Assembly: GCA_030765405.1 (NCBI GenBank)
Contig: JAVCCP010000067.1
Coordinates: 97,051 to 161,050 of the forward strand
DNA: 64,000 nt
Direction of reading: 5' to 3'
Source of the DNA: Candidatus Ancaeobacter aquaticus
GTDB lineage: Bacteria; Auribacterota; Ancaeobacteria; Ancaeobacterales; Ancaeobacteraceae
Part shown: positions 46,657-64,000 of the stretch, in pieces
Layout of the letters: the number at the start of each line of letters is the position of its first letter
Position numbering within the stretch: the first letter of the stretch is position 1
Made by a program: the position numbers and the translations under genes
Notes under the pieces: model-generated
The model's database searches: none
What the model saw: the letters and a program-made list of their open reading frames with translations, nothing else
Told to the model about the DNA's origin: nothing

Positions 46657-46679
46657 TTTCAATATCTCTAATAATTATC

Positions 46680-46931
46680 ATGAGTAAATTAAAATTAGAT
46701 CTCCACGACATATTTAATAAAGGCAAGAAGATTGAGGATGCTCTTGCATCTATCATGAACGATGCGGTAAAAAAGAAGATAAAAACCGTTGAAATCATTC
46801 CAGGAAAAGGTTCGGGTCAGCTCAAAAAGAAAGTAATAAAGTTTCTTGAAAAAAATAAGGGGATGTATCACCGCATAGAGAAAGATTCGCATAATTGGGG
46901 TAGACTTTTTGTCCATTTCAAACATAACTAG
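46680..46931 (+). CDS. Stand-alone Smr-domain protein
   Basis: LDLHD...EIIPGKGSGQLKKKVIKFL matches the Smr pattern (LDLHG...IIHGKG.G.L). A small hairpin CTAGC-TTT-GCTAG followed by TTTT overlaps the stop. Confidence 0.6.
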   Translation: MSKLKLDLHDIFNKGKKIEDALASIMNDAVKKKIKTVEIIPGKGSGQLKKKVIKFLEKNKGMYHRIEKDSHNWGRLFVHFKHN

Positions 46932-47002
46932 CTTTGCTAGTTTTAACGCAAGGTTATTGTTCTCTGAAAAGGATTCTTTAAAATAAAAGAACACGCAGTG
47001 TT

Positions 47003-47656
47003 TTACCAGTATCCCCATTTCCCTGTCATAAGGACATAGATTCCGAGGCATAGGTTTGTTGTTGCGTGCGCAACGATACAATCAAAAATATTTTTTCGGT
47101 GATAAAGGATGATGTTGTATATAATTGCGGTAACACATGCTGCAATCCATTCCCATGACTGATGCCCAAAAGTAAAAAGCAAAATACTTCCAATGCATGA
47201 AAACCAGGTAAATGCGCCAATAGGCACTTTAGTAAAATCATTTGAGTTAATAAGGTAGCGAATAACGAGTGAACGAATAAACAATTCTTCAAAGAGGGGG
47301 ACTATAAGAACAGCTCCTCCAAGACGAAAACTTACAAGGAATGTGGTTATGTAGATGTTTCCTGAAAGTGGGTTGTAGCCCTCTGCTGGTGGGTGTAGCT
47401 TATCAAAGGGCATATATTCAGTCAGTCCTATCCATAAAAAGAATACGAGGACGCCAAGAATAATAGACAGAAATGAAAAAGAAAAACGTATTTCCTTATA
47501 TTTTTTCCACCAATATACTAAAAGACCCGCCGTAACCAGCGTTTGAATAGGATATATTAAGATAGCGAAGCTACCAAAATATGAAGAAAAAGAGCCAATT
47601 AAGATAAAAGCAATGTACGGAACGATATAAGGTGCTATAATCAAAAATGTTTTCAT
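47003..47656 (-). CDS. CPBP-family (CAAX protease / Abi) intramembrane metalloprotease
   Basis: EELFIRS, FGHQSWEW and HATTN motifs in a multi-TM protein. The true start is the internal ATG (MKTFLIIAPYIV...) at 47656. The ORF-track extension to 47929 overlaps the tex start and is rejected. Confidence 0.7.
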   Translation of the reverse strand: MKTFLIIAPYIVPYIAFILIGSFSSYFGSFAILIYPIQTLVTAGLLVYWWKKYKEIRFSFSFLSIILGVLVFFLWIGLTEYMPFDKLHPPAEGYNPLSGNIYITTFLVSFRLGGAVLIVPLFEELFIRSLVIRYLINSNDFTKVPIGAFTWFSCIGSILLFTFGHQSWEWIAACVTAIIYNIILYHRKNIFDCIVAHATTNLCLGIYVLMTGKWGYW

Positions 47657-47750
47657 ACTGTATTTTTTAGCAGATATTTTATAAAAAAGAAATATAATTA
47701 TAATAATCTTAAAATATGAAATGATATAAATAATAAGAATTGGAGATTCT

Positions 47751-50003
47751 ATGAACGAAGTGCATTTTAATTTAATCGCAAAAGAAATGAAACTCGATCC
47801 AAAACGTGTTCTTGCCGCAGTGTTGCTTCTTGACGGTGGTGCTACGGTACCCTTTATTGCACGATATAGAAAAGAATTAACAGATACTCTTGATGAGGTA
47901 CAAATTACTGATATACGCGATAGGATCAATCAGCTGCGTGATCTCGATAAACGACGTGATGCGATTATTAAGTCTCTTGAAGAAAGAAAACTGCTTACTG
48001 AAACACTCAAGAAGAAGGTAATGGCTGCAGAATCTCTTACCGTACTAGAAGATATATACCTGCCGTATCGACCAAAAAAACGTACCAAAGCAACAGTGGC
48101 AAAAGAAAAGGGTCTGGAACCACTGGCAAAATTGATTTTTGAACAAACAGATGTTGATCTTATCGCGGCTACAAAAAAATATGTTAATAAGAAAAAAGGC
48201 GTGGAAGGCAGTGAAGATGCACTTGCAGGTGCTCGTGATATTGTTGCCGAATGGATGAATGAAGATCAGGGTATACGTGCAAAGATGAGAGAGCTGTTTG
48301 CGGCTGAAGGATTGATTAGGTCAAAAGTCTGTAAAGGTAAAGAAAAAGACGGCATTAAGTATAAAGACTATTATGAATGGGAAGAAAAAATAGCTACCGC
48401 GCCTTCACACCGTATTCTTGCTATTCGAAGAGGTGAAAGTGAAGGGTTTTTAATGGCACGCATCACTCCGCTTGAAGAAGATGCTGTTTCATTGATGGAT
48501 CAATATTTTGTTAAAAATAGTACTGAGTCAGCTCAGCAGGTAAAACTTGCAGCACATGACGGTTACAAGAGATTATTATCTGTAGGTATGGAAACAGAAG
48601 TGCGGCTATCATCAAAGAAACGTGCTGATGAAGAGGCTATAACCGTATTTGTTGAAAATTTAAGACAGCTTCTTTTAGCATCTCCTCTTGGAGAGAAAAA
48701 TGTACTTGCTATTGATCCCGGTTTTAGAACAGGGTGTAAAGTTGTGGCTATTAATAAACAAGGGAAATTTCTTTTTACTGAAGTGATATATCCTCATGGA
48801 TCAGAATTTAGTGCCTCAGAAGCAACTGAAGCAGTAGTGAGTATGTGTAAAAAATATGAAATAGAAGCAATTGCGGTAGGTAACGGTACTGCGGGTAGAG
48901 AGACAGAAGCATTTGTTAGAGATATTAAGGCGCTAAACAAAATACCTGTGATACTAGTCAATGAAAGCGGAGCATCTATTTATTCTGCGTCTGCAGTTGC
49001 CCGTGAAGAATTTCCTGATCAGGATCTTACGGTACGTGGGGCTGTGTCTATTGGCAGGCGGCTCATGGATCCTTTATCAGAACTTGTTAAGATCGATGCA
49101 AAATCGATTGGTGTCGGTCAATACCAGCACGATGTAGACCAGAATGCGTTAAAAAATAGTCTTGATGATGTTGTTGTTAGCTGTGTAAATGCGGTAGGTG
49201 TTGAAGTAAATACATCAAGCAAACAGCTTCTGACCTATGTATCCGGTGTTGGACCAAAGTTAGCGCAATTAATTATAGAATATCGAAATGAAAATGGTCC
49301 TTTTACAACAAGAAAAGAACTGCTCAAAGTGTCGACACTTGGACCAAAAGTATTTGAACAGGCAGCAGGTTTTTTGCGTATACGTGGCGCAAAGAATAAA
49401 CTTGATTGTAGTGCGGTACACCCTGAAAGCTATCATGTAGTTGAGGCTATGGCTAAAGATCTGGGTAGTACAGTAACTGATATTATATCTGACAGCTCAC
49501 TTCAAAATAAGATAGATCTGAAGAAATATGTTACTGATACAGTGGGGTTACCGACTTTGCAGGACATTGTAAAAGAATTAGCGAAGCCGGGAAGAGATCC
49601 CCGCAAAGAATTTGAAGAGATAAAATTCCAGGATGGTGTAACAACAATGGATGATCTTAAAGTGGGGATGAAACTCACCGGAGTAATAACCAATATTACT
49701 GCATTTGGAGCATTTGTTGATATAGGCGTCCATCAGGACGGATTAGTCCATATCAGCCAAATGTCAGACGGTTTTGTGAAGAGTCCCGCTGATGTAGTAA
49801 AAGTCCAACAAAAGGTTACCGTAACCGTAATGGAAATTGATAAAGACCGAAAACGCATCGCTCTATCTATGAAGACCAAACTCGAGAAAGATTTTTCTCT
49901 CAAAAAAGACCATCCTAAAAAGGCGAGCCCATCGCAAAAGAGTGATTCATCTATGAGTGACTTTGGAAAAAAACTGATGGAAGCAGCTTTAAAGTCACAA
50001 TAA
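47751..50003 (+). CDS. tex: Transcription accessory protein Tex (HTH, YqgF, HhH and S1 domains)
   Basis: 750 aa, colinear with Tex. YqgF-like (LAIDPGFRTGCKV), HhH, and C-terminal S1 (GMKLTGVITNITAFGAFVDIG). Confidence 0.9.
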   Translation: MNEVHFNLIAKEMKLDPKRVLAAVLLLDGGATVPFIARYRKELTDTLDEVQITDIRDRINQLRDLDKRRDAIIKSLEERKLLTETLKKKVMAAESLTVLEDIYLPYRPKKRTKATVAKEKGLEPLAKLIFEQTDVDLIAATKKYVNKKKGVEGSEDALAGARDIVAEWMNEDQGIRAKMRELFAAEGLIRSKVCKGKEKDGIKYKDYYEWEEKIATAPSHRILAIRRGESEGFLMARITPLEEDAVSLMDQYFVKNSTESAQQVKLAAHDGYKRLLSVGMETEVRLSSKKRADEEAITVFVENLRQLLLASPLGEKNVLAIDPGFRTGCKVVAINKQGKFLFTEVIYPHGSEFSASEATEAVVSMCKKYEIEAIAVGNGTAGRETEAFVRDIKALNKIPVILVNESGASIYSASAVAREEFPDQDLTVRGAVSIGRRLMDPLSELVKIDAKSIGVGQYQHDVDQNALKNSLDDVVVSCVNAVGVEVNTSSKQLLTYVSGVGPKLAQLIIEYRNENGPFTTRKELLKVSTLGPKVFEQAAGFLRIRGAKNKLDCSAVHPESYHVVEAMAKDLGSTVTDIISDSSLQNKIDLKKYVTDTVGLPTLQDIVKELAKPGRDPRKEFEEIKFQDGVTTMDDLKVGMKLTGVITNITAFGAFVDIGVHQDGLVHISQMSDGFVKSPADVVKVQQKVTVTVMEIDKDRKRIALSMKTKLEKDFSLKKDHPKKASPSQKSDSSMSDFGKKLMEAALKSQ

Positions 50004-50081
50004 TTGTTATTACTCATATTTATAAGGTGCGCCTTTTTTTTGTTTGCAACACATATGAATTAAGTTATAATTTAGGATGTT

Positions 50082-50970
50082 ATGAAGAAAAAAAGACATA
50101 AAAGCACTAAGTCAAGCGAGTTTCTGAGCGAGGAAATGGAATGGCTTTATCTTACACCTGCCCAGAGAATGCATGAGACAACAAAGTTATGGCAATTATT
50201 TATTGCTATGCGAGGGAACCTTGATCCTGAACCCGATCCTCAAAGTCCTTTCTATTTTCAAAAAAAATAAAGTCAAAGGCCTTTTAATTGGCGGCCAGGC
50301 ATGCATTATTTACGGTGCAGCTGAATTTAGCCGTGATTCTGATTTTGTTGTACTTTGTAAAGAAGATAATTTACAGAGAATACGCATTGCATTAAAGGAA
50401 TTGAAAGCTAAGATTATTTATGTCCCCCCATTAGAAATTGAATATTTAGAGCGTGGTCATGCCTGCCATTTTAGGTGCGTTGCCAGAGATGTACAGGGTT
50501 TACGGGTGGACGTAATTTCTAAACTCAGAGGTTGTGAACCGTTTGATGAATTATGGAAGCGAAGGAAGAGGATAATTTTGACAAGAACCAATTCTGTAGA
50601 TGTAATTGGACTTAAAGATCTTGTCCAGTGTAAAAAAACTCAGCGGGATAAAGATTGGTTAATGCTTAAACGGCTGGTTGAAAATGACATTATTATAAAC
50701 AAAGATAAGTGTCCATCCGATGATAAAATAAGATGGTGGCTTTTTGAATCCCGAATACCCGAAACCCTTATTAAGTTGACAGAGAAGTATCCTAAAATTG
50801 TAAAAAATTGCATATCTGATAGACCGTCTTTAATCTCAGCCATAAAAAAAGATTTACAAAAACTTAACGTGCAACTTCAAGAAGAAGAACGTGTAGAACG
50901 AGAGAAAGATATAGAGTATTGGACTCCCTTGAAAAAGGAACTGGAATTATTACGCAGGAAATTAAGATAG
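50082..50970 (+). pseudogene. Minimal nucleotidyltransferase-fold protein (GG...DSD motif) split by a +1 frameshift at an A8 homopolymer (50260-50267)
   Basis: ORF1 (50082-50270) ends at TAA directly after A8. The +1 frame continues FKKNKVKGLLIGGQACIIYGAAEFSRDSDFVV..., an NTase motif. The two pieces are colinear. Confidence 0.6.
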
Positions 50971-51142
50971 TTTATAGATTATATTAATAATTGGAATGCA
51001 CGAAGTATAGTGAAAAGCATCCCAAGCCGGTTTAAGGGGTATTATTTTTATGAGAGACCTCTTTCCCTTGGACTTACAGTGGTCCTGAAAGCGGAATAGA
51101 GGGAAAAGGCAATAAAGGGAGTTGAGCCCTTATTCACTCTAA

Positions 51143-51217
51143 AACCTTATTAAGTTGACAGAGAAGTATCCTGAAATATGAGAAAAAACTGCATATCTGA
51201 TAGATCGCTCTTTATTT
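51143..51217. repeat. Roughly 85%-identical copy of a 75-bp internal segment of the nucleotidyltransferase gene (original at 50762-50834), lying in the downstream intergenic region
   Basis: Original: AAACCCTTATTAAGTTGACAGAGAAGTATCCTAAAATTGTAAAAAATTGCATATCTGATAGACCGTCTTTAATC. Copy: AACCTTATTAAGTTGACAGAGAAGTATCCTGAAATATGAGAAAAAACTGCATATCTGATAGATCGCTCTTTATTT. Confidence 0.7.
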
Positions 51218-51308
51218 ATACAAAAATCAACAGTGTTGCACTGTAATTATTACGATTTGTAAGTGCTTTATATATAGTGATATATAATTATTTACCCCCC
51301 CCCAGCCC

Positions 51309-51337
51309 TTGACAAACCTTTTATTATCAGGTATAGT
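51309..51337 (+). promoter_or_regulatory. Near-consensus sigma70 promoter (TTGACA-17-TATAGT), immediately preceded by a C9 homopolymer at 51295-51303
   Basis: -35 TTGACA at 51309-51314, 17-nt spacer, -10 TATAGT at 51332-51337. The predicted TSS is about 51344. Confidence 0.55.
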
Positions 51338-51343
51338 TCATTT

Positions 51344-51409
51344 ATGAAACGAAAAAAGAAGAGGTCTGTACATAAACGGTATCTGAATAACAGAAAGAGT
51401 GAATTATGA
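51344..51409 (+). CDS. 21-codon highly basic upstream ORF (MKRKKKRSVHKRYLNNRKSEL). Apparently leaderless. Its TGA overlaps the ATG of the giant gene (ATGA).
   Basis: ATG at 51344 is 7 nt after the -10. It is in frame through TGA at 51407-51409. The giant gene ATG is at 51406. Confidence 0.4.
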   Translation: MKRKKKRSVHKRYLNNRKSEL

Positions 51410-54400
51410 AAGCATATTCTATCTCAATGTATCGGATGACACCCTTGATGAAGGTTATTAGTCTTGTTGTAGCATTTATTTTTATTTTTACTTCTACTAC
51501 ATTTGCTATTCCTCGCACAATGTTGGATGTAACCCAGTCCAAAGGGGTGCAATCTGTTTCAAAAGAAGCGGAGCTAACCTATCACATTAATCCGGCAAAA
51601 TTTCTTGTGCCTGAAAATTTCGGTATGGTTACCGAACGGTTCATATCATCAGGAACAAAAAATGCAAAGAAACTCATTATCCAGATACAGGATTCTCATT
51701 GCAATTATGAAGCGCAAAAGAATATATCGAAAATGATTCAGATAATGGCTACGGATAAATCAACAGCCGGGGCACTGAAAATGATTTCAGTAGAAGGATC
51801 GCAAGGTGTCGCAAATTTTGATTATGAGCGTTCTTTCCCTAACAGGGAAATCAGAAGCCAAACAAGCGATTATTTTATGAAAATAGGCTGGCTTACCGGA
51901 CCGGAATTGTATGAGATAGATTCAAAAGATAAGCCGCTACTTTTTTTTGGAGCGGAAGATAAAGATCTATACGAGAAAAATCTAGATTATTTCTTGAAGA
52001 GCAAAAAGGATATAGCGCGTGAACATGCATTTATAGATAAGGTATTGAGTGTAATAGCTGTTTTGAAAAGAAAAATATTTTCTAAGGCAATGCTTAATCT
52101 CGCACAGAAACGTCAAGAATGGGATGGTGGTATTCTACAGTTTACGGATTATTGCGGCTATATAGATAATCTAGCCTTAAAACACGGATTCGGGGAAAAA
52201 GGCGCAAAATATTTTAGTGATAAGAAAAAATATCCAAATTTCACTGCTGTTATGGAAAGTATTGATATTGAAAACAAAATAAATCCTAAAAAAATACAAT
52301 CTGAAAGAGAGGCGATTGTTAGTCATCTTCAAAAAAAGATGGTCAAGGAAGAACTTTCAGAGCTTGTCAAACAATCATTACACTTGCGTATAGGTAAAAT
52401 CACTTCAGATATGTTTTATAATTATTTAAATGAGGTGGTAATAAATAAAAAAATTGATATGAAAAAATATCCTAATTTAAAAGGATATATGCAAATAGTA
52501 AAACTGAACAGCGTATTAGATGCAGGAAAACTGTTTGGCGAAGTTGACAGGATAGAAAATGCAATAAAGAACAAAATGTTCAAGAATAGGGAAGAGAAAG
52601 AACTAGACCTGATGATAAAACAGGTAAATATAATGAAGAATCTTCTTAACTTGAGAATGTCGCGACGTGATCTTTCTTTCTATGACAATAATAAGAAAGA
52701 TATGACAGCTGATAAATTGATAAGAAAAGTAGGCAAACTGGCTAAAAAAACCGGTATAAGCAGTGATCTTTCCGGCTCGATTGCATGGCTAAAGGCAAAC
52801 AAAAATATAGATGTATCGGTATGTGAAGAATTTTATAAAGCGGCTTTAGCAAGAGATAAAGTGCTTGTTGAAAATACGATTAAAGAGATGGGTAGGACGA
52901 AAGCAAATGCGGTAGCAGTAGTGAGCGGAGGTTTTCATACGCAGGGTATGAAAGAACTATTTAAGGGTAAAGGGTATTCATATGTGGTGGTTACTCCCAG
53001 AATGACTAAAGCGTATAATGATAAAATATATCTTAGCCGAATGCTGAATAAGCAGACTGAATTTGACAAAATATTTGGTGCAACAGGCACGAGGCTTTCC
53101 GCATGGACAATGAGAGATAAGTTGATATTTAAGAAATCATGGGCTACCGAATTAGCGCTTATGGCAGAAAAGTTAGGTGATTTTATCGCATTCAGGCAGT
53201 GGATTTTTATGAATAAAACAGATCTCGGCATTGATATCGTTGAAGATAAAGATGGTTTAAAGATTGTTGATCAAAGTAACGCAAAACAGGTATTGGTGAG
53301 AGAGGGTAAAGATGGTGCTCCAGAAATAACAGAAGTGAGTACGATGTCTGCCAAAATTTCTGAAGAATCAGGAGTAGACAAAGGAGCAGGACATCGAGAC
53401 ATCACGGTGGCAGAAGCCGAGAGACTTTCTGATCGCATGAAAAGCCAATTGGGTTATTTTGTTGATAAGCTTCTGGAAGAATTAGCATCAACTGAATTTG
53501 ATAATATGAAAAGAGATGCTCTGAGTATTAAAGCTCTCATTGCAGAGAATGGGAATCTTGAGGATATTAAAAAAGCGGTGAGTAAATTGCGATTATCAGA
53601 GAGCGAAGTTTATAAGCAATTGCAGGAAGAGGGCAAAGATATAGAAGAAGAGGCGTGGGTTTTTGATTGGATGGATTTCACGAAATATGTCGTTAAGAAT
53701 AATTTAGAGGCTGAAGAGGAAGAAATTGTTGTAGTAGCTGCAGCAGCTGAAGCACGTGAAGTGATAAACCAGACAGACGGTGATGATGAACTTGTCAAAG
53801 GTTCCATGCTCGCCAAAGCGCCTGAGGTTAAGGTACACGATCACTGGGAAGAGATGAATTTTATTACGGCAGGTAATAAGAAGTCTGATGTGACAGAGCG
53901 TGTAAGAGCAATCAGTGCGCTTGGCGAAATGAAAACACCTTTGACTATTAAATCGGAAGTCATAGTAAAAAAGTTACAGGATCTGGCAGTGGATAAGGGA
54001 GAGCCAAATGAGGTGCAGCAGGCTGCAATACATGCGTTGATGGCGCAAGACGAGTCAAAAGCTATCGCTTTTATGGGGGAACACTCGCTTATTCTTGTTA
54101 TGGATCAGACAGACGGTGATGATGAACTTGTCAAAGGTCCCATGCTCGCCAAAGCGCCTGTTAGAATACCTGCAGAGGCAATGGATCAGACTGACGGTGA
54201 TGATGAGAAGAAGGTGGAGCCGCGATCGCACGATCACTGGGAAGCGATGAATATTCTTACGGCCGGCGACAAGAAGTCTGATGTGACAAAGCGTGTGGAA
54301 GCGATCAGGACGCTTGGCATGATGAAAGCTCCGTCGACTTTTAAGGTGGAAGACATAGTGAAACAACTGCAGGATATGGCGATGGACAAGGGAGAGCCAG

Positions 54401-56307
54401 TCGAGATACAGCAGGCGGCGCTCGCCGCGTTTATGGAGCTGAAAGGAGAACTTCCCGCGATGATTGAGGGGACGCCGTCGATGTTTGCCAAAGTGGCTGA
54501 GAAAACAGCACGTATAAAAGATATAGAAACGATTACTAATGAGATTCATGGCATTCCGGGTATGATAGATGAGTTCGATTTGAAGGGAAGAGAAGGGATG
54601 CCGACTGGCTTCGACCTGATTAAAAGATCGCAAGACGCTGATGAGCTGATATCGGCGAGGAGTGAACAAGAATATAAAGAAAGTCGCAAAAAGATAACCG
54701 ATTGGTTGGATGAGATTAACAAGAAGATAGGGGTTGAAGCAAAAAATGTCATGCAAGAGAAAAAGGGAAAAGTGTTGGATGTTGTGTTGAAGGAATATGC
54801 CGGAAAGAGTTTTAAAAGAAATATAACTGGGGGTATCCCTCAAGGGATGACAGCGCTGGTGCAGGAGATTCAGCGGCGCGGAGAATTTCGTCTATTAACG
54901 GAACAGGATATTCAGGAAGTGTTGGAAAAGAATGTAATCGCTAATGTTCTTGCTAATCCGGCTGAGGGTAATTTCACAGTTAAGGTAATGATGAAAGAAG
55001 CCAAAGCGTCTGAAGTTACAAGACCAGGAGTTGGATCTACTGAAGGTTATGTGAACGAAGCGATATTGAATGCATATAATAGTTATGCAGAAAATCCTGA
55101 TGGCGCAGTAGAACTAATATTAAATGCATTGAGTAATATGGAGGAAGATGAGTATCTTGTGAATCTGGTAACAGCGATTGATATATTGAGTGGCGTTAAT
55201 CGCCCTAATTTCAATTCTTTAATCGATTATTTATTAGCTAAAAAAGACAGTACCGATCATAGTGGTTTAAAAGATGAGATTAAGCCGATAGTAGATGAAA
55301 TACTTGCTGCTGAGGAGGAGTTGTTGTATGATAAACTTGCGGGGAAGCTTAATGGACTGAAATTAACAGAAGGTTCAGATGCAGAAAAGGCGCGTGATAT
55401 TTTAGTAAGTGTCATAAAGACAGGTGATTTGGCTGTTATCAGGGCAACAATCTCTCGTGCTGTACTCGATATTCCCCGTGATGTGTTTCTTAATGATGTC
55501 AAGACAAACGTAGAAGATATGTTGAGTCCGGGGTTTGTTTCAAGCAGTTTAGGTGTTATGTATTATTCATTGATAGGTTTAAATGAGGCAATGCCGTCAG
55601 AGGAGTATTTTGGGGCTGAATGGAAAGTGATAAGCGAAACTGTTAAAGCCAACATTAATACCACGGCAGTTGCAGATAGCGCTCTACTAAATAAGGAAAA
55701 CATTGATAAAAAAGAGATGTTGTTCCATCATGTTGAAAAAGCTACTGATCAGGTACAGCTTAAGATGCAGTTAAAAGAACACGTTGCGGCAGCGGTACAG
55801 GCAGTATTGCAAGGGCTTGATAAACGTGTTGTTGTTGCTGTAGATTATGCTGATTGGGATCAGGGAGTGTTCGATCAGGTCAAAGAAGAGGTCTTTAAAG
55901 AAAAGAAACTTATATCTGAGGAACAGAAGAAAAAGTTTAAAGAAATTATGGAGGATCACATAGTTATAGGAAAAGAAACGGATACTACGGATACTGTTGT
56001 GAGTGAAGCAAGAGATAAATTAGATGAGCTAAAAGCTTACACGCTTGTATCAATAGATATCCCTGCAGCACTATTTGGGAAATATGAAGATATGATTACA
56101 TTGGAAAATCTCGCTATATTCCTCTTAACATCTAATGGCAAGATAAATGTCGTTGATCTTGATCTTGTTAAAGCGAAGGCTATGGGTCTTAAAGATGTGG
56201 TAGCTGCAATAGAAAGTGACAGTTTGTTGCCAATATTGGATGATGGTGCGACGATACGGACAAATGCTGTTATAAACGCGTATCAGGCACTTGGATTCCA
56301 GGCATAA
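51406..56307 (+). CDS. Giant (1633 aa) signal-anchored protein: N-terminal TM segment, Tiki/TraB/GumN/ChaN-superfamily-like domain, acidic linker, HEAT (PBS-lyase-type) repeats, long alpha-helical C-terminal region. Function unknown.
   Basis: N-terminal hydrophobic segment (LMKVISLVVAFIFIFTSTTFA). ...KKLIIQIQDSHCNYEAQ... and ...AVAVVSGGFHTQGMKELFKGKGYSYVVV... resemble the two GxxH-type motifs of the ChaN/TraB/GumN family (C-terminal consensus vAvGaaHl.Ge.Gl..lL...GY.V). Repeats HDHWEEMNFITAGNKKSDVTERVRAISALGEMK / HDHWEAMNILTAGDKKSDVTKRVEAIRTLGMMK look like HEAT repeats. AAAGAG SD lies 7 nt upstream. Family assignments are from memory. Confidence 0.8.
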   Translation: MKAYSISMYRMTPLMKVISLVVAFIFIFTSTTFAIPRTMLDVTQSKGVQSVSKEAELTYHINPAKFLVPENFGMVTERFISSGTKNAKKLIIQIQDSHCNYEAQKNISKMIQIMATDKSTAGALKMISVEGSQGVANFDYERSFPNREIRSQTSDYFMKIGWLTGPELYEIDSKDKPLLFFGAEDKDLYEKNLDYFLKSKKDIAREHAFIDKVLSVIAVLKRKIFSKAMLNLAQKRQEWDGGILQFTDYCGYIDNLALKHGFGEKGAKYFSDKKKYPNFTAVMESIDIENKINPKKIQSEREAIVSHLQKKMVKEELSELVKQSLHLRIGKITSDMFYNYLNEVVINKKIDMKKYPNLKGYMQIVKLNSVLDAGKLFGEVDRIENAIKNKMFKNREEKELDLMIKQVNIMKNLLNLRMSRRDLSFYDNNKKDMTADKLIRKVGKLAKKTGISSDLSGSIAWLKANKNIDVSVCEEFYKAALARDKVLVENTIKEMGRTKANAVAVVSGGFHTQGMKELFKGKGYSYVVVTPRMTKAYNDKIYLSRMLNKQTEFDKIFGATGTRLSAWTMRDKLIFKKSWATELALMAEKLGDFIAFRQWIFMNKTDLGIDIVEDKDGLKIVDQSNAKQVLVREGKDGAPEITEVSTMSAKISEESGVDKGAGHRDITVAEAERLSDRMKSQLGYFVDKLLEELASTEFDNMKRDALSIKALIAENGNLEDIKKAVSKLRLSESEVYKQLQEEGKDIEEEAWVFDWMDFTKYVVKNNLEAEEEEIVVVAAAAEAREVINQTDGDDELVKGSMLAKAPEVKVHDHWEEMNFITAGNKKSDVTERVRAISALGEMKTPLTIKSEVIVKKLQDLAVDKGEPNEVQQAAIHALMAQDESKAIAFMGEHSLILVMDQTDGDDELVKGPMLAKAPVRIPAEAMDQTDGDDEKKVEPRSHDHWEAMNILTAGDKKSDVTKRVEAIRTLGMMKAPSTFKVEDIVKQLQDMAMDKGEPVEIQQAALAAFMELKGELPAMIEGTPSMFAKVAEKTARIKDIETITNEIHGIPGMIDEFDLKGREGMPTGFDLIKRSQDADELISARSEQEYKESRKKITDWLDEINKKIGVEAKNVMQEKKGKVLDVVLKEYAGKSFKRNITGGIPQGMTALVQEIQRRGEFRLLTEQDIQEVLEKNVIANVLANPAEGNFTVKVMMKEAKASEVTRPGVGSTEGYVNEAILNAYNSYAENPDGAVELILNALSNMEEDEYLVNLVTAIDILSGVNRPNFNSLIDYLLAKKDSTDHSGLKDEIKPIVDEILAAEEELLYDKLAGKLNGLKLTEGSDAEKARDILVSVIKTGDLAVIRATISRAVLDIPRDVFLNDVKTNVEDMLSPGFVSSSLGVMYYSLIGLNEAMPSEEYFGAEWKVISETVKANINTTAVADSALLNKENIDKKEMLFHHVEKATDQVQLKMQLKEHVAAAVQAVLQGLDKRVVVAVDYADWDQGVFDQVKEEVFKEKKLISEEQKKKFKEIMEDHIVIGKETDTTDTVVSEARDKLDELKAYTLVSIDIPAALFGKYEDMITLENLAIFLLTSNGKINVVDLDLVKAKAMGLKDVVAAIESDSLLPILDDGATIRTNAVINAYQALGFQA

Positions 56308-56324
56308 AAATCGTAACTCGTAAT

Positions 56325-56368
56325 AGCAAAGGGCATGTCACAGGTGATGTGCCCTTTGCTTTATTATT
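56325..56368 (+). terminator. Intrinsic terminator for the giant gene: 17-bp stem (two G.U) followed by TTATTATT. It lies between convergent genes.
   Basis: AGCAAAGGGCATGTCAC-AG-GTGATGTGCCCTTTGCT then TTATTATTCTG. Confidence 0.6.
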
Positions 56369-56465
56369 CTGCATCGTTGTGTAGAAATAATAACGCAGGT
56401 TAAAGCCCTGCGGCTAACGTACTAGAGTAGGATAGGTGTCCTGCCTGTCAAAAAGAAAAAGTTGG

Positions 56466-57650
56466 TTAAAAACTGATCATGGTTTCAAAATCTTCAAAAG
56501 TGATGAATCTTATCGTGCATTGATTTTCAATAACAGTTTCTTTAAGGTTATTATTGATAACGTAGGCAGTTTTTGTGTTTTTGTATCTGAGAAGGAATCT
56601 TCTTAGCCCTTTTGGTATTTTTAAATTTGTGATGTTGCTTTTAACTTCAATAGGTATGGGTTTTCTATCGATTGACAAAATGAAATCTACTTCATCTCCA
56701 TCCTTTGTTCTCCAAAATTTAAGTTCCATGTTTGGAGCTAGCATAGAATGTAATTTTAAAAATACAAAACTTTCATAGAGGACCCCTTTGTCAGTACGTT
56801 CTGATACTGATGAGAAATCTTTTAATAATGCATTTCTTATTCCCAGATCGTATAGAAAAGTTTTGCATGATTTTCTTAATTCATTGCCTAGATTATTTGA
56901 ATAGCTATATAAGCGAAAATTAACATATGTTTCTTCGAGGATATCAAGATATCGATTTATGGCTTTTGAACTGAGTCTGACCTGATTTGATAGCGAATGT
57001 ATTGAAATAGTAGATCCTTGATTTTCGGCAAGTAGATATAGAAGGTGATTAAATGCTCTGATATTTTCTTCTTTGATAAGAGATTTAATGTCTTTTAATA
57101 TATAACTACTGAGAAGCTCTGATAACATTTGTTGTTTTCTATCTTCAAAATCTGTATGAGTTAATCCTGGCATGCCTCCGTAACGCATATAATAATCCAA
57201 AGGATAATTTTTATAATGTGTTTTTAATTCTGAATACTGTAGAGGGTAAATTCTGTATAAAAACCTTCTTCCTGCGAGACTTTCTTTTAAATGTTTATGG
57301 ATTTCTAAAGAGGACGATCCAGAACAAAAGATCTTTGTTTTAATATTGGAATCAAAAATAGCTTTGAATATTTTTGAAGCATTTTGAATATATTGAAATT
57401 CATCAATAAATACCATTTCTCCAGAATTACATATCATAGTAATAATATCTTTATTAGATTTATTGAATTCAGCGAGGACTTGTGGTTGTTCAAGATCGAA
57501 AAATGATGTTTTGTAACCGGACTTTTGAGCGTGTTTTTGAAGCTGTTTAAGTATGGTTGTTTTGCCAACCTGTCTTGGTCCCAAGAGAATATCAATCTCA
57601 GGTTGTGTTATTTCATTATGTAAAGTGTTAAGTATTAAACGTTTAATCAT
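56466..57650 (-). CDS. AAA+ ATPase of the AAA_14 + DUF4143 family
   Basis: Walker A LLGPRQVGKTT, Walker B VFIDEFQY, and a C-terminal DUF4143-like region. Common stand-alone family of unknown role. Confidence 0.7.
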   Translation of the reverse strand: MIKRLILNTLHNEITQPEIDILLGPRQVGKTTILKQLQKHAQKSGYKTSFFDLEQPQVLAEFNKSNKDIITMICNSGEMVFIDEFQYIQNASKIFKAIFDSNIKTKIFCSGSSSLEIHKHLKESLAGRRFLYRIYPLQYSELKTHYKNYPLDYYMRYGGMPGLTHTDFEDRKQQMLSELLSSYILKDIKSLIKEENIRAFNHLLYLLAENQGSTISIHSLSNQVRLSSKAINRYLDILEETYVNFRLYSYSNNLGNELRKSCKTFLYDLGIRNALLKDFSSVSERTDKGVLYESFVFLKLHSMLAPNMELKFWRTKDGDEVDFILSIDRKPIPIEVKSNITNLKIPKGLRRFLLRYKNTKTAYVINNNLKETVIENQCTIRFITFEDFETMISF

Positions 57651-57885
57651 AACGATTACTAATGTAACCTATTAGGTTAAAATAGTCAATACATATTTTG
57701 CATACACTTCTGTATTTTGTGGACTAAAACGATTTTAATGATAAAATAAGCAACTTATCTAATGAGTGAGTGACGGTGGGGTAGGGTTGGATTTGCAGGG
57801 CTTTATAACGCTTCGCTCGCTATGACAGTAAGTACGTTTGTTGATTTACCATTACATAACTCACTAACAATTAATTATATATCGT

Positions 57886-59895
57886 ATGAATAAACTCACA
57901 TTAGTATCAGATTTTAAGCCGTTAGGAGACCAGCCTGAGGCAATTGAAGCGCTGACTAAAGGTATTATCGACAATAAACGTTTTCAAACTCTTCTTGGGG
58001 TGACCGGTTCGGGAAAGACATTCACTGTAGCAAATGTTATTGAACGCGTACAAAAACCGACTCTGGTGCTTTCTCATAATAAGACGCTTGCGGCACAGCT
58101 CTATTCAGAGCTAAAACAGTTCTTTCCTCATAACGCAGTAGAATATTTTGTTAGTTACTACGATTATTATCAACCGGAAGCATATATTCCTCAAACCGAT
58201 ACCTATATTGAAAAAGATGCGTCAATAAACGATGAATTGGAACGATTACGCCTTGCCGCGACCAGTTCACTCATGACACGCCGAGATACAATAGTTGTTG
58301 CTAGTGTATCCTGTATATATGGTTTGGGTTCAAAAGAAGATTTTGAAGAGCTCCTTATCATGGTAGAGAAAGGTCAGCATTTCACTCGAGAAGAACTGTT
58401 AAAAAAACTTGTTGATATTCAGTATGAGCGTAACGATATTGATTTTTATCAGGGTAAATTTCGTGTGCGAGGAGATAGGATAGAAGTGTTTCCCGCATAT
58501 GCTGAAGACGCTATACGTATAGAAATATTTGATGATGTTGTCGATAGGATAACTCATATTGATCCTTTAACCGCAAAGATAAAAGAAGAAGTGGATATAG
58601 CGACTATTTATCCAGCGAAACATTTTGTTACCCCATATAGAAAGATTGAGCCTGCAACAGAAGCAATTTTAAAAGAACTTGATGAACGACTCAAATATTT
58701 CAGGGATCATAATAAGCTCCTTGAAGCGCAACGGATAGAAACAAAAACACGCTATGATATGGAGATGCTTCATGAAATAGGGTATTGCCAGGGAATTGAA
58801 AACTATTCGCGTCATTTGAGTGGTAGAGCTCCCGGTGAACGTCCGTCAACATTGATAGATTTTTTCCCTGATGATTTTCTTATGGTGATTGATGAGTCTC
58901 ATGTCTCTGTGCCGCAGGTACGGGGCATGTTTAACGGTGACCGGTCACGTAAAAACACTCTTGTCGAACATGGGTTTCGCTTACCTTCCGCGCTTGATAA
59001 CAGGCCGCTTAACTTTCATGAGTTTGAGCCTTTAATGAAAAATACCATATTTGTTTCAGCGACACCCGGTCCCTACGAATTTGAACGATGTCCAAAACCG
59101 ATAGAGCAAGTCGTTCGCCCAACCGGTCTTGTTGAACCGAAGATAACCGTGAAGCCGCTTGCCGGTGAAATAGATGATCTTATCGGACAGTGTCGTAAAC
59201 GGGTAAAGAAACATCAGCGTGTACTGGTAACAACACTAACAAAACGTGCGGCAGAAGATTTAACAACGTATTTAAGTAATGTCGGGATAAGAGTGAAATA
59301 TCTTCATTCTGGAATCGATGTTTTGACGAGAGTTGATGTGCTTAAGGGGTTACGCAAAAAAGAATTTGATGTTTTAATTGGAGTTAATCTATTGCGTGAA
59401 GGGTTAGACCTACCAGAGGTAGCGCTTGTTGCTATATTAGATGCCGATAAAGAAGGGTTTTTGAGATCTGAAACAGCGCTTATTCAAACTTCTGGACGTG
59501 CCGCAAGACATATTGACGGTGAAGTTATTATGTATGCAGATAAGGTGACGAATTCTATGCAAAGAGCGATTTCTGCAATGGATTATAGACGTGAGAAACA
59601 GCTCGCATATAATAAAGAACACGGCATTACCCCTCGGAGCGTGCAAAAAGCTATCCGCGATGAAATGTCGGGGAAAAGTAACGCTGAAAATATTGTTGAA
59701 GATATCATTACTATTGCGGGTGAAGATTTTGAATTACACGAAGTGCTTTTTGAGCTTAATCGTGAAATGCAGGAAGCGGCTGAGAATCTTGATTTTGAAC
59801 GTGCGGCTCAATTAAGAGATAAAATAAAAGAGATTAAAATGTCTCGATTATTTAAGAAAAAAGGGAAGTTTAAAAAAGTTCGTGCAAAAAAATAG
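57886..59895 (+). CDS. uvrB: Excinuclease ABC subunit B
   Basis: Helicase motifs (GVTGSGKT), beta-hairpin region, C-terminal UvrC-interaction helix. 669 aa. Confidence 0.9.
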
Positions 59896-59909
59896 ATGGG
59901 GGAAAATCC

Positions 59910-60764
59910 ATGAGTGATCTTGATTATTTAGAAATAAAAACGATAGTAGAAAATGCGTTGGAAGAGGATGTTGTTGGCGGTGATATTACAACAAATACAC
60001 TCATACCGTTTGATTTGGAGTGTCGTGCAGAGGTGCTGGTAAAAGAAGACTGTGTGCTCGCCGGGATACCTGTCGCAATTGCTGTTTTTAAGTCGTTTGA
60101 TTCTACCTTGATAATAGATGTCCTAGAAAAAGATAGTGCGAGCGTTAAAGCAGGGACAATAGTCCTAACTGTTGAGGGGAAAGCACGGTCAATACTAACC
60201 TGTGAACGTACTGTTTTAAATTTCTTGCAGCGTCTCTCGGGTATTGCAACAGTAACGAGATCATACGTTGATGCATGTGCTACTGATCGAGTTAAGATTT
60301 TGGATACGAGAAAAACGACACCGCTTTTGCGGTACTTAGAGAAATATGCTGTTCGAATGGGTGGCGGAGAGAATCATCGATATGGTCTTTTTGATCAGTT
60401 TCTTATCAAAGATAATCATCTTAAGTTACTAAAAGAAACAGGTAAAAATCCTATTAGTTTTAGTGTTATAACAGCAAAGAAATATTCACCCTCAATACCA
60501 GTTGAAATAGAAGTTGAACAAGTGGAAGATATTGAAGAGGCAGTTGAAGCTGGATGCGATATTATTCTACTTGATAATATGTCACCGGAAACAATCCAAA
60601 CGGCTGTTGATATAGTTAAAGGAAGAGTTCTTACAGAAGCCTCCGGTGGTATTACATTAGAAAATGTTGCTGAGTACGCACAAACCGGTGTAGACAGAAT
60701 ATCTATCGGTGCATTGACTCATTCTGCCCGGTCTGTAGATATTAGTTTAGATATTGTTGAATAA
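59910..60764 (+). CDS. nadC: Nicotinate-nucleotide pyrophosphorylase [carboxylating] (quinolinate phosphoribosyltransferase)
   Basis: QPRTase N- and C-terminal domains (...LLDNM...). 284 aa. Confidence 0.85.
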   Translation: MSDLDYLEIKTIVENALEEDVVGGDITTNTLIPFDLECRAEVLVKEDCVLAGIPVAIAVFKSFDSTLIIDVLEKDSASVKAGTIVLTVEGKARSILTCERTVLNFLQRLSGIATVTRSYVDACATDRVKILDTRKTTPLLRYLEKYAVRMGGGENHRYGLFDQFLIKDNHLKLLKETGKNPISFSVITAKKYSPSIPVEIEVEQVEDIEEAVEAGCDIILLDNMSPETIQTAVDIVKGRVLTEASGGITLENVAEYAQTGVDRISIGALTHSARSVDISLDIVE

Positions 60765-60782
60765 GCGGGATATACATTTAAT

Positions 60783-61775
60783 ATGCAAAAGAATAATACA
60801 GTAAAAATTGATGAAGCACTAATAGAAGTATTACATAAACGTAAAAGTGAATATGTCTCTGGTGAAGAGCTTGCGCAGAAGCTGAATGTGTCTCGTACAG
60901 CTATATGGAATCATATTACTCATTTGCGTCAGTGTGGGTATGTTATTGATGCTGTATCGAATACAGGGTACCGATTAGTGAATATTCCGGATAAAATGTT
61001 GCCGGACGAGATTATGAGGCTTCTCTGTACAAAAATAATAGGACGAAACGTAGTTTCTTTTGAAGAAACTGCATCTACAAGCAGTGTTGCGTTGCGTATG
61101 GCTGAAGATGGTGAACCAGAAGGAACTATTGTAATAGCCGAATCGCAAAATAAGGGCAGAGGAAGACACGGAAGATGCTGGTCATCACCTAAAGGTAAAG
61201 GGCTATGGTTTTCGTTGATATTACGCCCCGATATTTCTCCTCAAGATATATCTCAGATAACCTGTGCAGGTGCAATTGCGTGTGCGCGAGCCATTACTGA
61301 TATATCAGGATGTGAAACAGAAATAAAATGGCCAAACGATATTATAGTAGGCGGTAAGAAAATAAGCGGTATATTAACGGAAATAAACTCTGACCTTGAA
61401 GGTATTCGTTATGTTGTGCTTGGTGTTGGGATTAACGTGAATGTTGATAAAACCGATTTCCCGAAAGAGATAAGAAATATTGCGACGTCAATGAAGATAG
61501 AACTTTCAAAAAACGTTTCACGGCTTTCAGTGCTCGGTTCATTTCTTCAATGGTTTGAAGAATATTATTTAGAGCTGCAAAGTGGAAAATTTGATAGGAT
61601 CAGAACTGATTGGATAAGTCTTTCCAACACCATAGGTAAATATGTTACTGTTGAAACACAGGGTAAAAAGATTGAGGGGTATGCAACAGGGGTTGATCCG
61701 AAAGGAAACCTTGTTGTGCGGCTTCCAAACGGGCTAAATGAATATGTAATGAGCGGAGATGTAACAGTACAATGA
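60783..61775 (+). CDS. birA: Bifunctional biotin--[acetyl-CoA-carboxylase] ligase / biotin operon repressor
   Basis: N-terminal winged HTH (SGEELAQKLNVSRTAIWNHITHLRQCGY), BPL catalytic motif GRGRHGRCWSSP, C-terminal SH3-like domain. ATGA overlap with coaX. Confidence 0.85.
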   Translation: MQKNNTVKIDEALIEVLHKRKSEYVSGEELAQKLNVSRTAIWNHITHLRQCGYVIDAVSNTGYRLVNIPDKMLPDEIMRLLCTKIIGRNVVSFEETASTSSVALRMAEDGEPEGTIVIAESQNKGRGRHGRCWSSPKGKGLWFSLILRPDISPQDISQITCAGAIACARAITDISGCETEIKWPNDIIVGGKKISGILTEINSDLEGIRYVVLGVGINVNVDKTDFPKEIRNIATSMKIELSKNVSRLSVLGSFLQWFEEYYLELQSGKFDRIRTDWISLSNTIGKYVTVETQGKKIEGYATGVDPKGNLVVRLPNGLNEYVMSGDVTVQ

Positions 61776-62539
61776 ATAAGAATACATTGCTTACCTGCGA
61801 TATAGGGAATTCTGAAATACATTTTGGCGTTTTTGTTGGTGATACATTGAAAAAGTCATTTCGTATTTCTTCAAAGCTTCCGTATGAAAAGATGAGAAGT
61901 GAAGCGGCCAAAAGAATGCCTAAAGAGTGCGATTCCGTTATTCTCGGGAGTGTTGTTCCGCACGTAACAAAAAAGCTCGGTCGAATAATAAAAAACACCT
62001 TAAAGGTTGATCCTCATATTGTTTCTTCATCAACTAAATGGGGAATAGACCTGAAGTATAAAAACCCTCAAACGCTTGGTGTTGATAGGCTTGCTAATAG
62101 TATTGGCGGATTTGCACTCTATGGCGGCCCGCTTATTATTGTTGATTTTGGTACTGCGATTACGTTTGATGTTGTCGACGGAAAAGGTAATTTTATTGGG
62201 GGTGCTCTTATCCCTGGATATGCACTTCAGTGTGATAGTCTTGGTGACAATACCGCGCAGTTACCGAAAGTTACCAAAGGCGCAGGATCTTCCAGTAAAA
62301 TAGGTGATGATACACATTCATGTATTAAACTTGGTGTTACGGTTGGGGTATGTGGCGCTGTTAAAGAAGTGTTGGCACACCTCAAGAATATTAAGGGAAT
62401 ACAAAAAAAGGAATTAAAAATTCTTGCAACAGGCGGGCACAGCTACTATTTTGCGACGCGTGCAAAAATATTTGATGTTGTATGCCCTGATTTGACATTG
62501 ATTGGGCTAAAAGAAATGTATAAAAGGATTGTTCAATGA
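61772..62539 (+). CDS. coaX: Type III pantothenate kinase
   Basis: LTCDIGNSEIHFGVF...DRLAN...GTA.T is the Baf/CoaX family. Classic birA-coaX linkage. Confidence 0.85.
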   Translation: MNKNTLLTCDIGNSEIHFGVFVGDTLKKSFRISSKLPYEKMRSEAAKRMPKECDSVILGSVVPHVTKKLGRIIKNTLKVDPHIVSSSTKWGIDLKYKNPQTLGVDRLANSIGGFALYGGPLIIVDFGTAITFDVVDGKGNFIGGALIPGYALQCDSLGDNTAQLPKVTKGAGSSSKIGDDTHSCIKLGVTVGVCGAVKEVLAHLKNIKGIQKKELKILATGGHSYYFATRAKIFDVVCPDLTLIGLKEMYKRIVQ

Positions 62540-63936
62540 ACTATGCATTAGTTTTTCGTACTACACACCAGACAATGATGGCGGAAGAAGTATTATCATT
62601 AAACAGTTATTATTTTGATACGTTACCATTGCCAAAAGAAATAAAAACCGGTTGTACGATAGCGTTATCAATTCAAAAAGATGATTGTCCGTTAATTATC
62701 GCTCTCTTGAAAAATGAGAATATTGTTGTTGAGGGTGTGTATGAGGTTGGTGATGCAGGGTGGAAGAAAATTGATTATGCGCACAAGGTTGATAGAAGGG
62801 TTTATCTCGACAATAATGCTTCAACACCGGTAGCGCATGAGGTGGTGCATGTACTCTTACCGTATCTTGAAGAACACTATGGAAATCCCTCATCAATTCA
62901 TTTAATTGGTCGTGAAGCGCGGATTGCGATCGATGAGGCCAGAGATGAAGTTGCCACTCTTATGGGTGCTGAATCAGAAGAAATTATTTTTACCGGTAAT
63001 GGTACGGAGGCAAATAATTTTGCGATAAAAGGTATAGCTGAGCTCCATGCTGTAAATAAAGGGCATATCATTACTACGGTTATTGAGCATCCGAGTGTTC
63101 TGGAGTCGTGTCGGTACTTAGAAAAATATGGTTATGAGGTAACGTATCTTCCTGTTGATGCATTTGGTTTGGTTTCGGCTGATCAAGTAAAAAACGCGAT
63201 AAAAAAGAATACGATACTCATTACCGTGCAGTGGGCAAATAATGAGATTGGTACTTTGCAGCCGGTAACAGAGATCGGGACGCTTGCGCTCGAACAGGGG
63301 ATAGTTTTTCATACTGATGCGATACAAGTAATCGGTAAAATACCTTATGACGTACATTCTTTACCAATTGATATGTTAACTTTTTCTGCGCACAAGTTTT
63401 ATGGGCCAAAAGGATGTGGGGGGCTATATATTCGCCGAAACATACAGGTGTTACCGATCATTCATGGTGGTAAACAGGAACGTGGTATGCGTGCAGGTAC
63501 AGAAAACAGTATTGGCATAGTTGGTGCGGGAGCGGCTGCGATGCTTCTTAAAGAATCACAAGTTGAAGATAGTACAGAAATAAAAAGATTAAGAGATCTT
63601 CTCTATGAAGGGATTGCATCCTCTATAGAAGGTATTAAGGTGAATGGTGATCCTGAAAAACTTCTGCCGAATACATTAAATATTAGTTTTAAGGGTGTTG
63701 ATGGCGAGTCTTTACTTATCAATCTTGATCTTGAAGGGATCAATGTCTCAACAGGATCAGCGTGTGCAAGCGGGTCAACTGAACCATCATATGTCCTGAA
63801 AGCGTGTGGTGTTTCAGATGAATATATAAACGGAGGTATCCGTTTTTCATTAGGAAGAGAGAATACTGAGGACGATATCCTTTATACCATCGAGAAGACT
63901 AAAGAGATCGTTAATCGGTTACGTAAGAAACAATAA
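62536..63936 (+). CDS. Cysteine desulfurase (NifS/IscS/YrvO-like, PLP-dependent) with an N-terminal roughly 85-aa DUF3343-like (putative S/Se carrier) domain fused in frame
   Basis: N-terminus MNYALVFRTTHQTMMAEEVL...LPLPKEIKTGCTIAL fits the DUF3343 pattern (F.sTH...P.P.eis.gCg.al). From RRVYLDNNAST onward it is class V aminotransferase, with the active-site Cys in GSACASGS. No internal start codon separates the two parts. The gene is ATGA-coupled to coaX and followed by mnmA. Confidence 0.75.
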   Translation: MNYALVFRTTHQTMMAEEVLSLNSYYFDTLPLPKEIKTGCTIALSIQKDDCPLIIALLKNENIVVEGVYEVGDAGWKKIDYAHKVDRRVYLDNNASTPVAHEVVHVLLPYLEEHYGNPSSIHLIGREARIAIDEARDEVATLMGAESEEIIFTGNGTEANNFAIKGIAELHAVNKGHIITTVIEHPSVLESCRYLEKYGYEVTYLPVDAFGLVSADQVKNAIKKNTILITVQWANNEIGTLQPVTEIGTLALEQGIVFHTDAIQVIGKIPYDVHSLPIDMLTFSAHKFYGPKGCGGLYIRRNIQVLPIIHGGKQERGMRAGTENSIGIVGAGAAAMLLKESQVEDSTEIKRLRDLLYEGIASSIEGIKVNGDPEKLLPNTLNISFKGVDGESLLINLDLEGINVSTGSACASGSTEPSYVLKACGVSDEYINGGIRFSLGRENTEDDILYTIEKTKEIVNRLRKKQ

Positions 63937-63950
63937 GCGAGCAGATGTAA

Positions 63951-64000
63951 TGTCTAAACAAGATAAAAAGCGAGTTGCTGTACTTTTAAGCGGTGGTGTT
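63951..64000 (+). CDS. mnmA: tRNA-specific 2-thiouridylase MnmA (5' end only; continues beyond the window)
   Basis: MSKQDKKRVAVLLSGGV is the N-terminal PP-loop (SGGxDS) start typical of MnmA. Confidence 0.6.

Follow-up and report, generated by a model that had tools for sequence, protein, structure and literature searches.

Layered in-frame duplications and a codon-usage island in a giant gene of Candidatus Ancaeobacter aquaticus

We analyzed a 64,000-nucleotide stretch of the genome of Candidatus Ancaeobacter aquaticus (NCBI GenBank assembly GCA_030765405.1, contig JAVCCP010000067.1, positions 97,051 to 161,050), which we call the window and number from its first letter. The organism is a species of Auribacterota described from metagenome-assembled genomes of Ace Lake, Antarctica (PMC9324843). 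Our subject is a giant gene whose product is identical to a hypothetical protein deposited for the same species, and in particular the region 53770 to 54900 within it, where a preliminary description made from the letters alone had pointed out near-identical 55-nucleotide (nt) repeats and a GC-rich segment. The features on which the argument turns are given below, with GC3 denoting the GC content of third codon positions.

51406 to 56307, + strand: giant gene, 1633 amino acids (aa), identical to NCBI MDP8263465.1
53770 to 53824, + strand: A1, the first 55-nt linker repeat, QTDGDDELVKGSMLAKAP
53836 to 54046, + strand: B1, the first HEAT pair, with Pfam HEAT_2 at aa 826-890 and GC3 0.44
54100 to 54180, + strand: extra linker element of 81 nt (27 codons), which holds A2 (54106 to 54160)
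54181 to 54228, + strand: A3, the old, diverged counterpart of A1, with a 26-nt head (QTDGDDE) kept, a 24-nt indel and a diverged tail
54229 to 54439, + strand: B2, the second HEAT pair, 77% identical to B1 in DNA and 67% in protein, GC3 0.66
53803 to 54879, + strand: shoulder of raised GC3, 0.50 versus 0.31 outside
54205 to 54490, + strand: core of the GC3 island, GC3 0.68
54433 to 55314, + strand: codon-exact segment of 882 nt (aa 1010-1303), duplicated in tandem in some assemblies and single in the window

A1 and A2 are identical at 54 of 55 nt, exactly as first described, the sole difference being T/C at 53803/54139. The partial third copy, reported at 54185, was also found; it lies at 54181 to 54206, where 25 of 26 nt are identical to the head of copy 2. 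The window holds no further copy of the 55-mers, and 0 matches are expected from shuffled sequence. Read along the gene, the order is linker A1, B1 (whose protein sequence runs HDHWE...QQAA...), the 27-codon linker element with A2, A3 (QTDGDDE-KKVEPRS), and B2. The 81-nt element is composite. It opens with 26 nt that match the A3 head, continues with a body identical to A1 at 54 of 55 nt, and closes with 20 unique nt. In the DNA alignment, A2 is a hybrid, with first bases (ATGGAT) of the A3 type and a body of the A1 type.

It is through B1 that the whole protein meets the gathering score of HEAT_2 (PF13646), at 30.0 bits versus a cutoff of 27.7; scored alone, B1 reaches 24.9 bits and B2 13.8 bits, below the threshold. 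Among 1.84 billion representatives, a profile built from the alignment of B1 and B2, linkers included, found generic multi-HEAT proteins and nothing else. A single-sequence AlphaFold2 (AF2) model gives four helices per B unit and nonhelical linkers, at a mean predicted local distance difference test score (pLDDT) of just 42.9.

The HEAT units and the linkers differ in age. Over 211 nt, B1 and B2 are separated by a synonymous divergence (dS) of 0.72 and a nonsynonymous divergence (dN) of 0.20 (dN/dS, ∼0.27; proportion of synonymous differences [pS], 0.46). These values mean that the unit duplication is old and that both copies are under purifying selection. The earlier claim of a recent duplication of a HEAT unit of ∼112 aa thus holds in part: a duplication of an acidic linker plus two HEAT repeats exists, but at 77% DNA identity and a dS of ∼0.7 in the HEAT parts it is old, and only the linker core, with 0 synonymous differences, is recent. 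Across its 12.3 synonymous sites, ∼5.7 differences between A1 and A2 would be expected at the B rate (P of ∼5e-4 for zero at the synonymous difference rate of B), and permutation gives a p value of 0.0016 that a tract of 55 nt inside the diverged copies differs at no more than one place. The near-identity of A1 and A2 points to a later short-tract conversion, or a secondary copy, of the linker core. The sequences would then record two events and not one, the old unit duplication and a recent copying confined to the linker.

A function at the nucleotide level might instead hold the 55-mer identical, for example if it worked as an RNA element, were bound by a protein as DNA, or served as a site of recombination; the absence of any synonymous change between the copies would fit. 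The motif head recurs in frame, three times in all, and there are two further tail-like motifs, listed below.

54487 to 54505, + strand: in-frame motif (FAKVAEK) similar to the linker-element tail, which could be chance
55000 to 55018, + strand: second tail-like motif (AKASEV), 17 of 19 nt identical to the A1 tail, which could also be chance

The RNA of unit 1 (53764 to 54099) moreover folds somewhat better than its shuffles (z of -2.8; 1 of 100 shuffles equal). Against such a function, the 64-mers at the repeats give no folding signal on either strand (z of -0.6 to +0.6), the region 53000 to 55500 has no Rfam match at an E value of ≤1, no other copy occurs in the window, and two copies by themselves would look alike under constraint and under recency. 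We rate a nucleotide-level function as very improbable. A structured RNA was rejected on similar grounds: no gain in folding over shuffles is seen for repeat unit 2 RNA (z of +1.0) or for the 64-mers, and only unit 1 is mildly structured. Part of the unit 1 fold is an imperfect inverted repeat, 53785 to 53802 with 53937 to 53954, and unit 2 has nothing similar.

Two near-identical short repeats within a large exported protein also bring to mind programmed diversification, either by a diversity-generating retroelement with its template and variable repeats or by a shufflon. The lone mismatch is T/C and not adenine-specific, however, the repeats are direct, and the Pfam annotations within ∼10 kb on either side include no reverse transcriptase or recombinase family. 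We rejected both candidates and leave this explanation a vanishingly small chance.

The GC-rich segment survived a sliding-window check. The profile is not uniform: GC averaged over 300 nt peaks at 0.54 at 54181, above every other place in the 64-kb window (mean, 0.381; standard deviation [sd], 0.039; next peak, 0.49). Of the range first assigned to it, 54200 to 54900, the left part stands; the right limit was set too wide, with 54440 to 54900 at 0.42 to 0.44 GC. The rise is driven by third codon positions: GC3 climbs to 0.657 in 70-codon windows, and the island stands ∼6 sd above the background of the other 41 open reading frames (ORFs; 0.304 ± 0.059, maximum 0.50). Maximum-likelihood segmentation of third positions places the core within the shoulder (log-likelihood ratio of ∼21 versus ≤8.1 in permutations). 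The core coincides with the A3 tail plus B2, and its borders adjoin repeat motifs, the left one just past the conserved linker head and the right one at the tail-like motif 54487 to 54505. Where B1 and B2 differ at third positions, B2 has G/C at 18 and A/T at 3 (binomial p of ∼0.0015).

Codon usage breaks at the island as well. Over 86 codons, the island favors the usage of the homologous gene in a 52%-GC relative over that of the host by +18.5 nats, and every other segment of the giant gene gives a negative log-likelihood ratio for the relative's usage. The GC contents of all known relatives that bear a homolog are 56% (L003), 52% (L004), 54% (L005), and 49% (L006); GC3 in the homologous genes is 0.55 to 0.67, and the nearest relative by UvrB (L026, 79% identity) has 56% GC. 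Recombination with a higher-GC homolog, as the preliminary description proposed, is made plausible by the codon usage and by the composition of the relatives, although no donor sequence turned up. Most likely, recombination with a higher-GC sister lineage brought the GC3 island in as a patch.

The island could also have arisen in place, by GC-biased gene conversion at a hot spot or by selection on synonymous sites, the latter acting on translation or mRNA properties or keeping B2 unlike B1 against deletion. The missing donor would then need no explaining, the region is recombination-prone, with three layers of duplication, and a mild GC3 shoulder covers the whole repeat region. Yet GC3 is only 0.44 in the tract that was demonstrably converted, A1/A2, and 0.66 in the unconverted B2; unit 2 RNA lacks both a folding signal and an Rfam match; and differing from B1 requires no one-way shift from A/T to G/C. 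An origin in place therefore seems unlikely to us, and we keep to a patch of foreign composition as the better account.

The third layer of duplication appears when assemblies are compared. Contigs that carried UvrB, the upstream ORF, or the giant gene were aligned to the window. The segment 54433 to 55314 is present once in the window and in L001, L008, L009, L013, and L014, and the single-copy form is found in at least five ENA assemblies. A perfect duplicate is present in JGI 3300025642 (L007), JGI 3300025669 (L011), and NCBI GCA_900162855.1. L007, a 159-kb contig, corresponds to window positions 48768 to 55314 followed by 54433 to 64000, with 100% identity throughout; L011 has the 55314|54433 junction too, as does L002, an NCBI contig of 1110 nt that at first seemed circularly permuted. 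The duplicated allele encodes a protein of 1927 aa instead of 1633, and its junction, E1303|M1010, falls exactly between codons. The longest contig with two copies (164,168 nt) exceeds the longest with one (163,286 nt) by exactly 882 nt. The L010 contig breaks ∼120 nt ahead of 55314.

These data bear on the possibility of an assembly artefact, whether a chimeric or misjoined contig or a single 54433-55314 segment that is really a collapsed repeat, with at least two copies in all cells. For the 55-mers and the GC island, an artefact, which the preliminary description had allowed for, is contradicted by their unchanged sequence in at least eight other contigs from ENA and JGI, which come from different samples and three assembly pipelines; the 55-nt repeat is also shorter than a k of 141. 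The collapsed repeat that it had asked to be looked for has a counterpart in the overlapping 882-nt segment, which is duplicated in other assemblies. A perfect 882-nt tandem repeat exceeds short-read length and collapses easily, copy number splits by pipeline (JGI and NCBI duplicated, ENA MEGAHIT [k141] single), and the L010 and L011 contigs break inside the segment. On the other side, five ENA MEGAHIT (k141) contigs pass through the segment unbroken with one copy, where, to judge from the assembler's workings, a de Bruijn loop should break them. We consider an artefact quite unlikely. Because a loop of full coverage should stop a de Bruijn assembler and these contigs nevertheless run through, we infer that the one-copy and two-copy forms are a real polymorphism of one population, the copy in the window being one of two alleles or possibly collapsed. 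One Logan contig stops exactly at 53799. With a k of 31, which we take Logan to use, this position closes the final k-mer found only in the left flank (53769 to 53799), and a k=31 graph should presumably branch at a genuine repeat here.

Taking these results together, we favor, with somewhat better than even confidence, a history in which the region 53770 to 54900 is part of the variable, length-tolerant middle of a giant exported protein, a middle that three or more in-frame internal duplications of differing ages have lengthened and that includes a higher-GC patch. The same reading covers the plan of the protein, which would begin with a signal peptide and a TIKI/TraB/EreA-like domain conserved at the N terminus, continue with the variable helical middle, and end in a C terminus whose similarity to homologs is weak and seen by eye. 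The old first step would have been a tandem duplication of the acidic linker (QTDGDDE...) with its two-HEAT unit. In a recent second step, now fixed, a linker stretch of 55 to 58 nt would have been copied or converted into the extra 81-nt linker element, yielding the near-identical 55-mers. The newest step, still variable, would be the perfect tandem duplication of 54433 to 55314 (882 nt, 294 aa). The data establish how the repeats are built, which of them are older, the structural variant, and the break in codon usage. As mechanisms, we infer slippage or unequal or illegitimate recombination for the duplications, with occasional short-tract conversion between linker copies; the second HEAT cassette, nonresident in composition, would have come in from a higher-GC lineage through recombination. 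No internal DNA repeats turned up in the homologous giant genes of relatives, so the duplications are specific to the Ancaeobacter aquaticus lineage.

Several points weigh against this history. No ortholog with these units, which would polarize the direction of B1/B2 substitutions and recency versus constraint for A1/A2, occurred in any of the collections searched. So far, the duplication comes from JGI and NCBI assemblies and the single copy from ENA MEGAHIT assemblies, and the contrast between one copy and two, drawn from assemblies, could partly reflect assembler behavior. The junction of the 882-nt duplication has no microhomology to point to one mechanism. If the patch is an unameliorated import, then a near-identical source should still exist somewhere; neither a homolog nor a donor of the repeat unit was found among 5.8 billion proteins (a 379-aa segment met only fragments of the same gene), 1.84 billion cluster representatives, plasmids, or phages, and 0 of 87 pattern matches in JGI metagenome contigs were confirmed. 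The middles of the homologs P0002 to P0012 gave no significant match to the repeat unit, and the GTDB species genomes gave one distant locus only, with the source genome not among the matches. The metagenome and genome collections returned not even the giant gene itself, which shows how poorly Ace Lake was covered in the donor search.

A bolder extension of the favored history, which we regard as a long shot, is that the linker elements, with their QTDGDDE head and LAKAPEV-like tail, act as recombination joints for the duplication, exchange, and import of cassettes. The middle would then be a contingency region at the level of the population, varying in real time in Ace Lake; a C9 tract beside the promoter might add on/off switching; and the foreign-looking HEAT cassette and the 294-aa variation in copy number would each catch that process at one moment.

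Outside the middle, the protein carries three further features of interest.

51406 to 51510, + strand: putative signal-peptide-like N-terminal segment, with basic residues, a hydrophobic stretch, and TSTxx[AGS]|[IV]P, read by eye
51550 to 53151, + strand: conserved domain of the N terminus (aa 49-582), with an alpha/beta core like that of TIKI/TraB/EreA/ChaN proteins, plus a large helical insertion
54979 to 55293, + strand: shared module (aa 1192-1296), also found in P0012 with an E value of 1.6e-17

By its putative signal peptide, the product of the giant gene would be an exported protein; on reading the sequences, the TSTxx[AGS]|[IV]P motif is kept in homologs. Homologs are scarce, numbering 12 among the 5.8 billion proteins, and the closest are giant proteins of Ca. 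Auribacterota. They share just the N-terminal ∼570 aa, at ∼52% identity, and their middles are unrelated. The C-terminal ...LGFQA tail resembles that of homologs by eye, and phmmer found nothing significant for it.

A fold comparison of the N-terminal domain matches the TIKI superfamily, with a parallel-sheet alpha/beta core like that of solved members; the figures listed were 9.4 for HopBA1, 8.8 for 2rad and 8.4 for 2qgm (both Ere-like), 8.2 for ChaN, 8.1 for a TraB-family protein, 7.8 for EreC, and 7.5 for RRSP. The superfamily of TIKI, TraB, PrgY, EreA, ChaN, and HopBA1 has been defined previously, and a 2His/2Glu catalytic set is a feature of its TIKI/TraB/EreA/ChaN members (PMC6254334). 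H98, E130, E167, E184, and H511 are invariant in 10 sequences and would be consistent with the 2His/2Glu motif. The domain matched no TraB, Erythro_esteras, or Cofac_haem_bdg profile in searches of Pfam, NCBIfam, and PDB sequences. Unlike members of the superfamily, it has a core split by a helical insertion of ∼280 aa and is fused to >1000 aa of variable sequence. The conserved head of this Auribacterota giant-protein family is thus likely to have a predicted TIKI/TraB/EreA-like hydrolase fold.

The shared module, of ∼105 aa (YVNEAIL..AY...EYLVN..TAIDIL), is 40% identical to the C-terminal part of P0012, an unrelated HD/GNAT multidomain protein of 2688 aa. Its presence in both suggests that giant proteins share modules.

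The remaining features of the gene are its borders and one antisense frame.

51309 to 51337, + strand: promoter-like site ahead of the giant gene, TTGACA-17-TATAGT, judged by consensus match only (11 of 12 positions)
56325 to 56360, + strand: terminator-like hairpin with a 16-bp stem, beginning 18 nt past the stop codon
54055 to 54843, - strand: antisense ORF of 262 aa, judged spurious

The antisense ORF was rejected as an overlapping gene: its translation, skewed toward Leu, Phe, His, and Arg, is unlike a protein and has no Pfam match. The frame stays free of stops because the codons concerned are missing from the GC-rich sense strand. A C9 homopolymer at 51295 to 51303, 5 nt ahead of the giant gene's -35 hexamer, is the sole run of seven or more C's in the 64-kb window, and at the consensus level its length is constant in all 15 assemblies that cover it (15/15). 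A piece of ∼70 nt from the 3' part of the ORF at 50173 to 50970 (50757 to 50826) recurs at 51136 to 51207 with 84 to 92% identity; this second copy is intergenic and lies ∼100 nt upstream of the promoter-like site. At the other end of the gene, ENA contig ERZ27315831 k141_236496 misses one A at 56007, and the resulting frameshift, a real variant or an assembly error, gives a product of 1538 aa without the last 95 residues, the ...LGFQA tail included.

The giant gene sits in an 11-kb block (∼46660 to 57880) between ValRS and UvrB, together with Smr, an Rce1-like gene, Tex, two small ORFs, and an AAA_14/DUF4143 ATPase.

57886 to 59895: UvrB, with 100% identity to the protein from Candidatus Ancaeobacter aquaticus

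In the nearest relative (L026, 7236 to 11986; UvrB 79% identical; GC 56%), ValRS is followed directly by UvrB, and the giant-gene homologs there adjoin a second giant gene and glnE/glnA. The ATPase gene (56466 to 57650, - strand), just downstream of the giant gene, lies in the stretch of lowest GC in the neighborhood (∼0.29 to 0.31), and its product matches the PADLOC candidate defense family PDC-S01 (E value of 1.6e-91); the giant protein itself has no match in PADLOC. The genome studied here has 38% GC; its GC skew is strongly positive, and almost all of its genes lie on the + strand. Set against the 49 to 56% of sampled relatives that carry the gene family, this is a large compositional shift within the phylum.

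In a giant gene from a phylum without cultivated members, the locus offers a dated series of in-frame duplications (old, recent, and ongoing). The points that stand out are a 294-aa duplication apparently still segregating in a natural Antarctic population, a sharply bounded codon-usage island, and the fold assignment of the conserved head. The deposited 1633-aa model may represent one of two alleles. Evolution by in-frame duplication is already known for modular exported and surface proteins, and the present case does not overturn current understanding.

Copy-number-variable in-frame tandem repeats occur in exported and surface proteins such as the streptococcal alpha C protein and the Bap/Esp-type adhesins. 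The giant gene resembles these in having DNA-identical in-frame units, apparently present in one versus two copies within one population, in a gene for a very large, putatively exported protein. It differs in that only one or two copies are seen, with no long array, and in that the unit is a heterogeneous stretch of 294 aa and not a defined domain. Concerted evolution by short-tract gene conversion is familiar from tufA/tufB in enterobacteria, and A1/A2 is likewise a tract without a synonymous difference inside duplicates that are otherwise 23% diverged. Here, however, the tract is intragenic, spans 55 to 58 nt, and lies in a linker, and with A2 a hybrid carrying the A3 head, a secondary duplication is equally possible. 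Like HEAT_2/PBS-lyase-type HEAT proteins (PF13646), the protein exceeds the gathering score, with B1 lifting it there, and the joint profile of B1 and B2 retrieves multi-HEAT proteins; unlike them, it has just two repeat pairs, with acidic linkers between. Finally, mosaic genes formed by interspecies recombination include the pbp and penA blocks of Streptococcus and Neisseria. The island differs from these in that no donor sequence was found and in that the block is itself a paralog of the neighboring unit; it shares with them a sharply bounded block of atypical composition and codon usage within a native gene, and relatives of matching composition exist.

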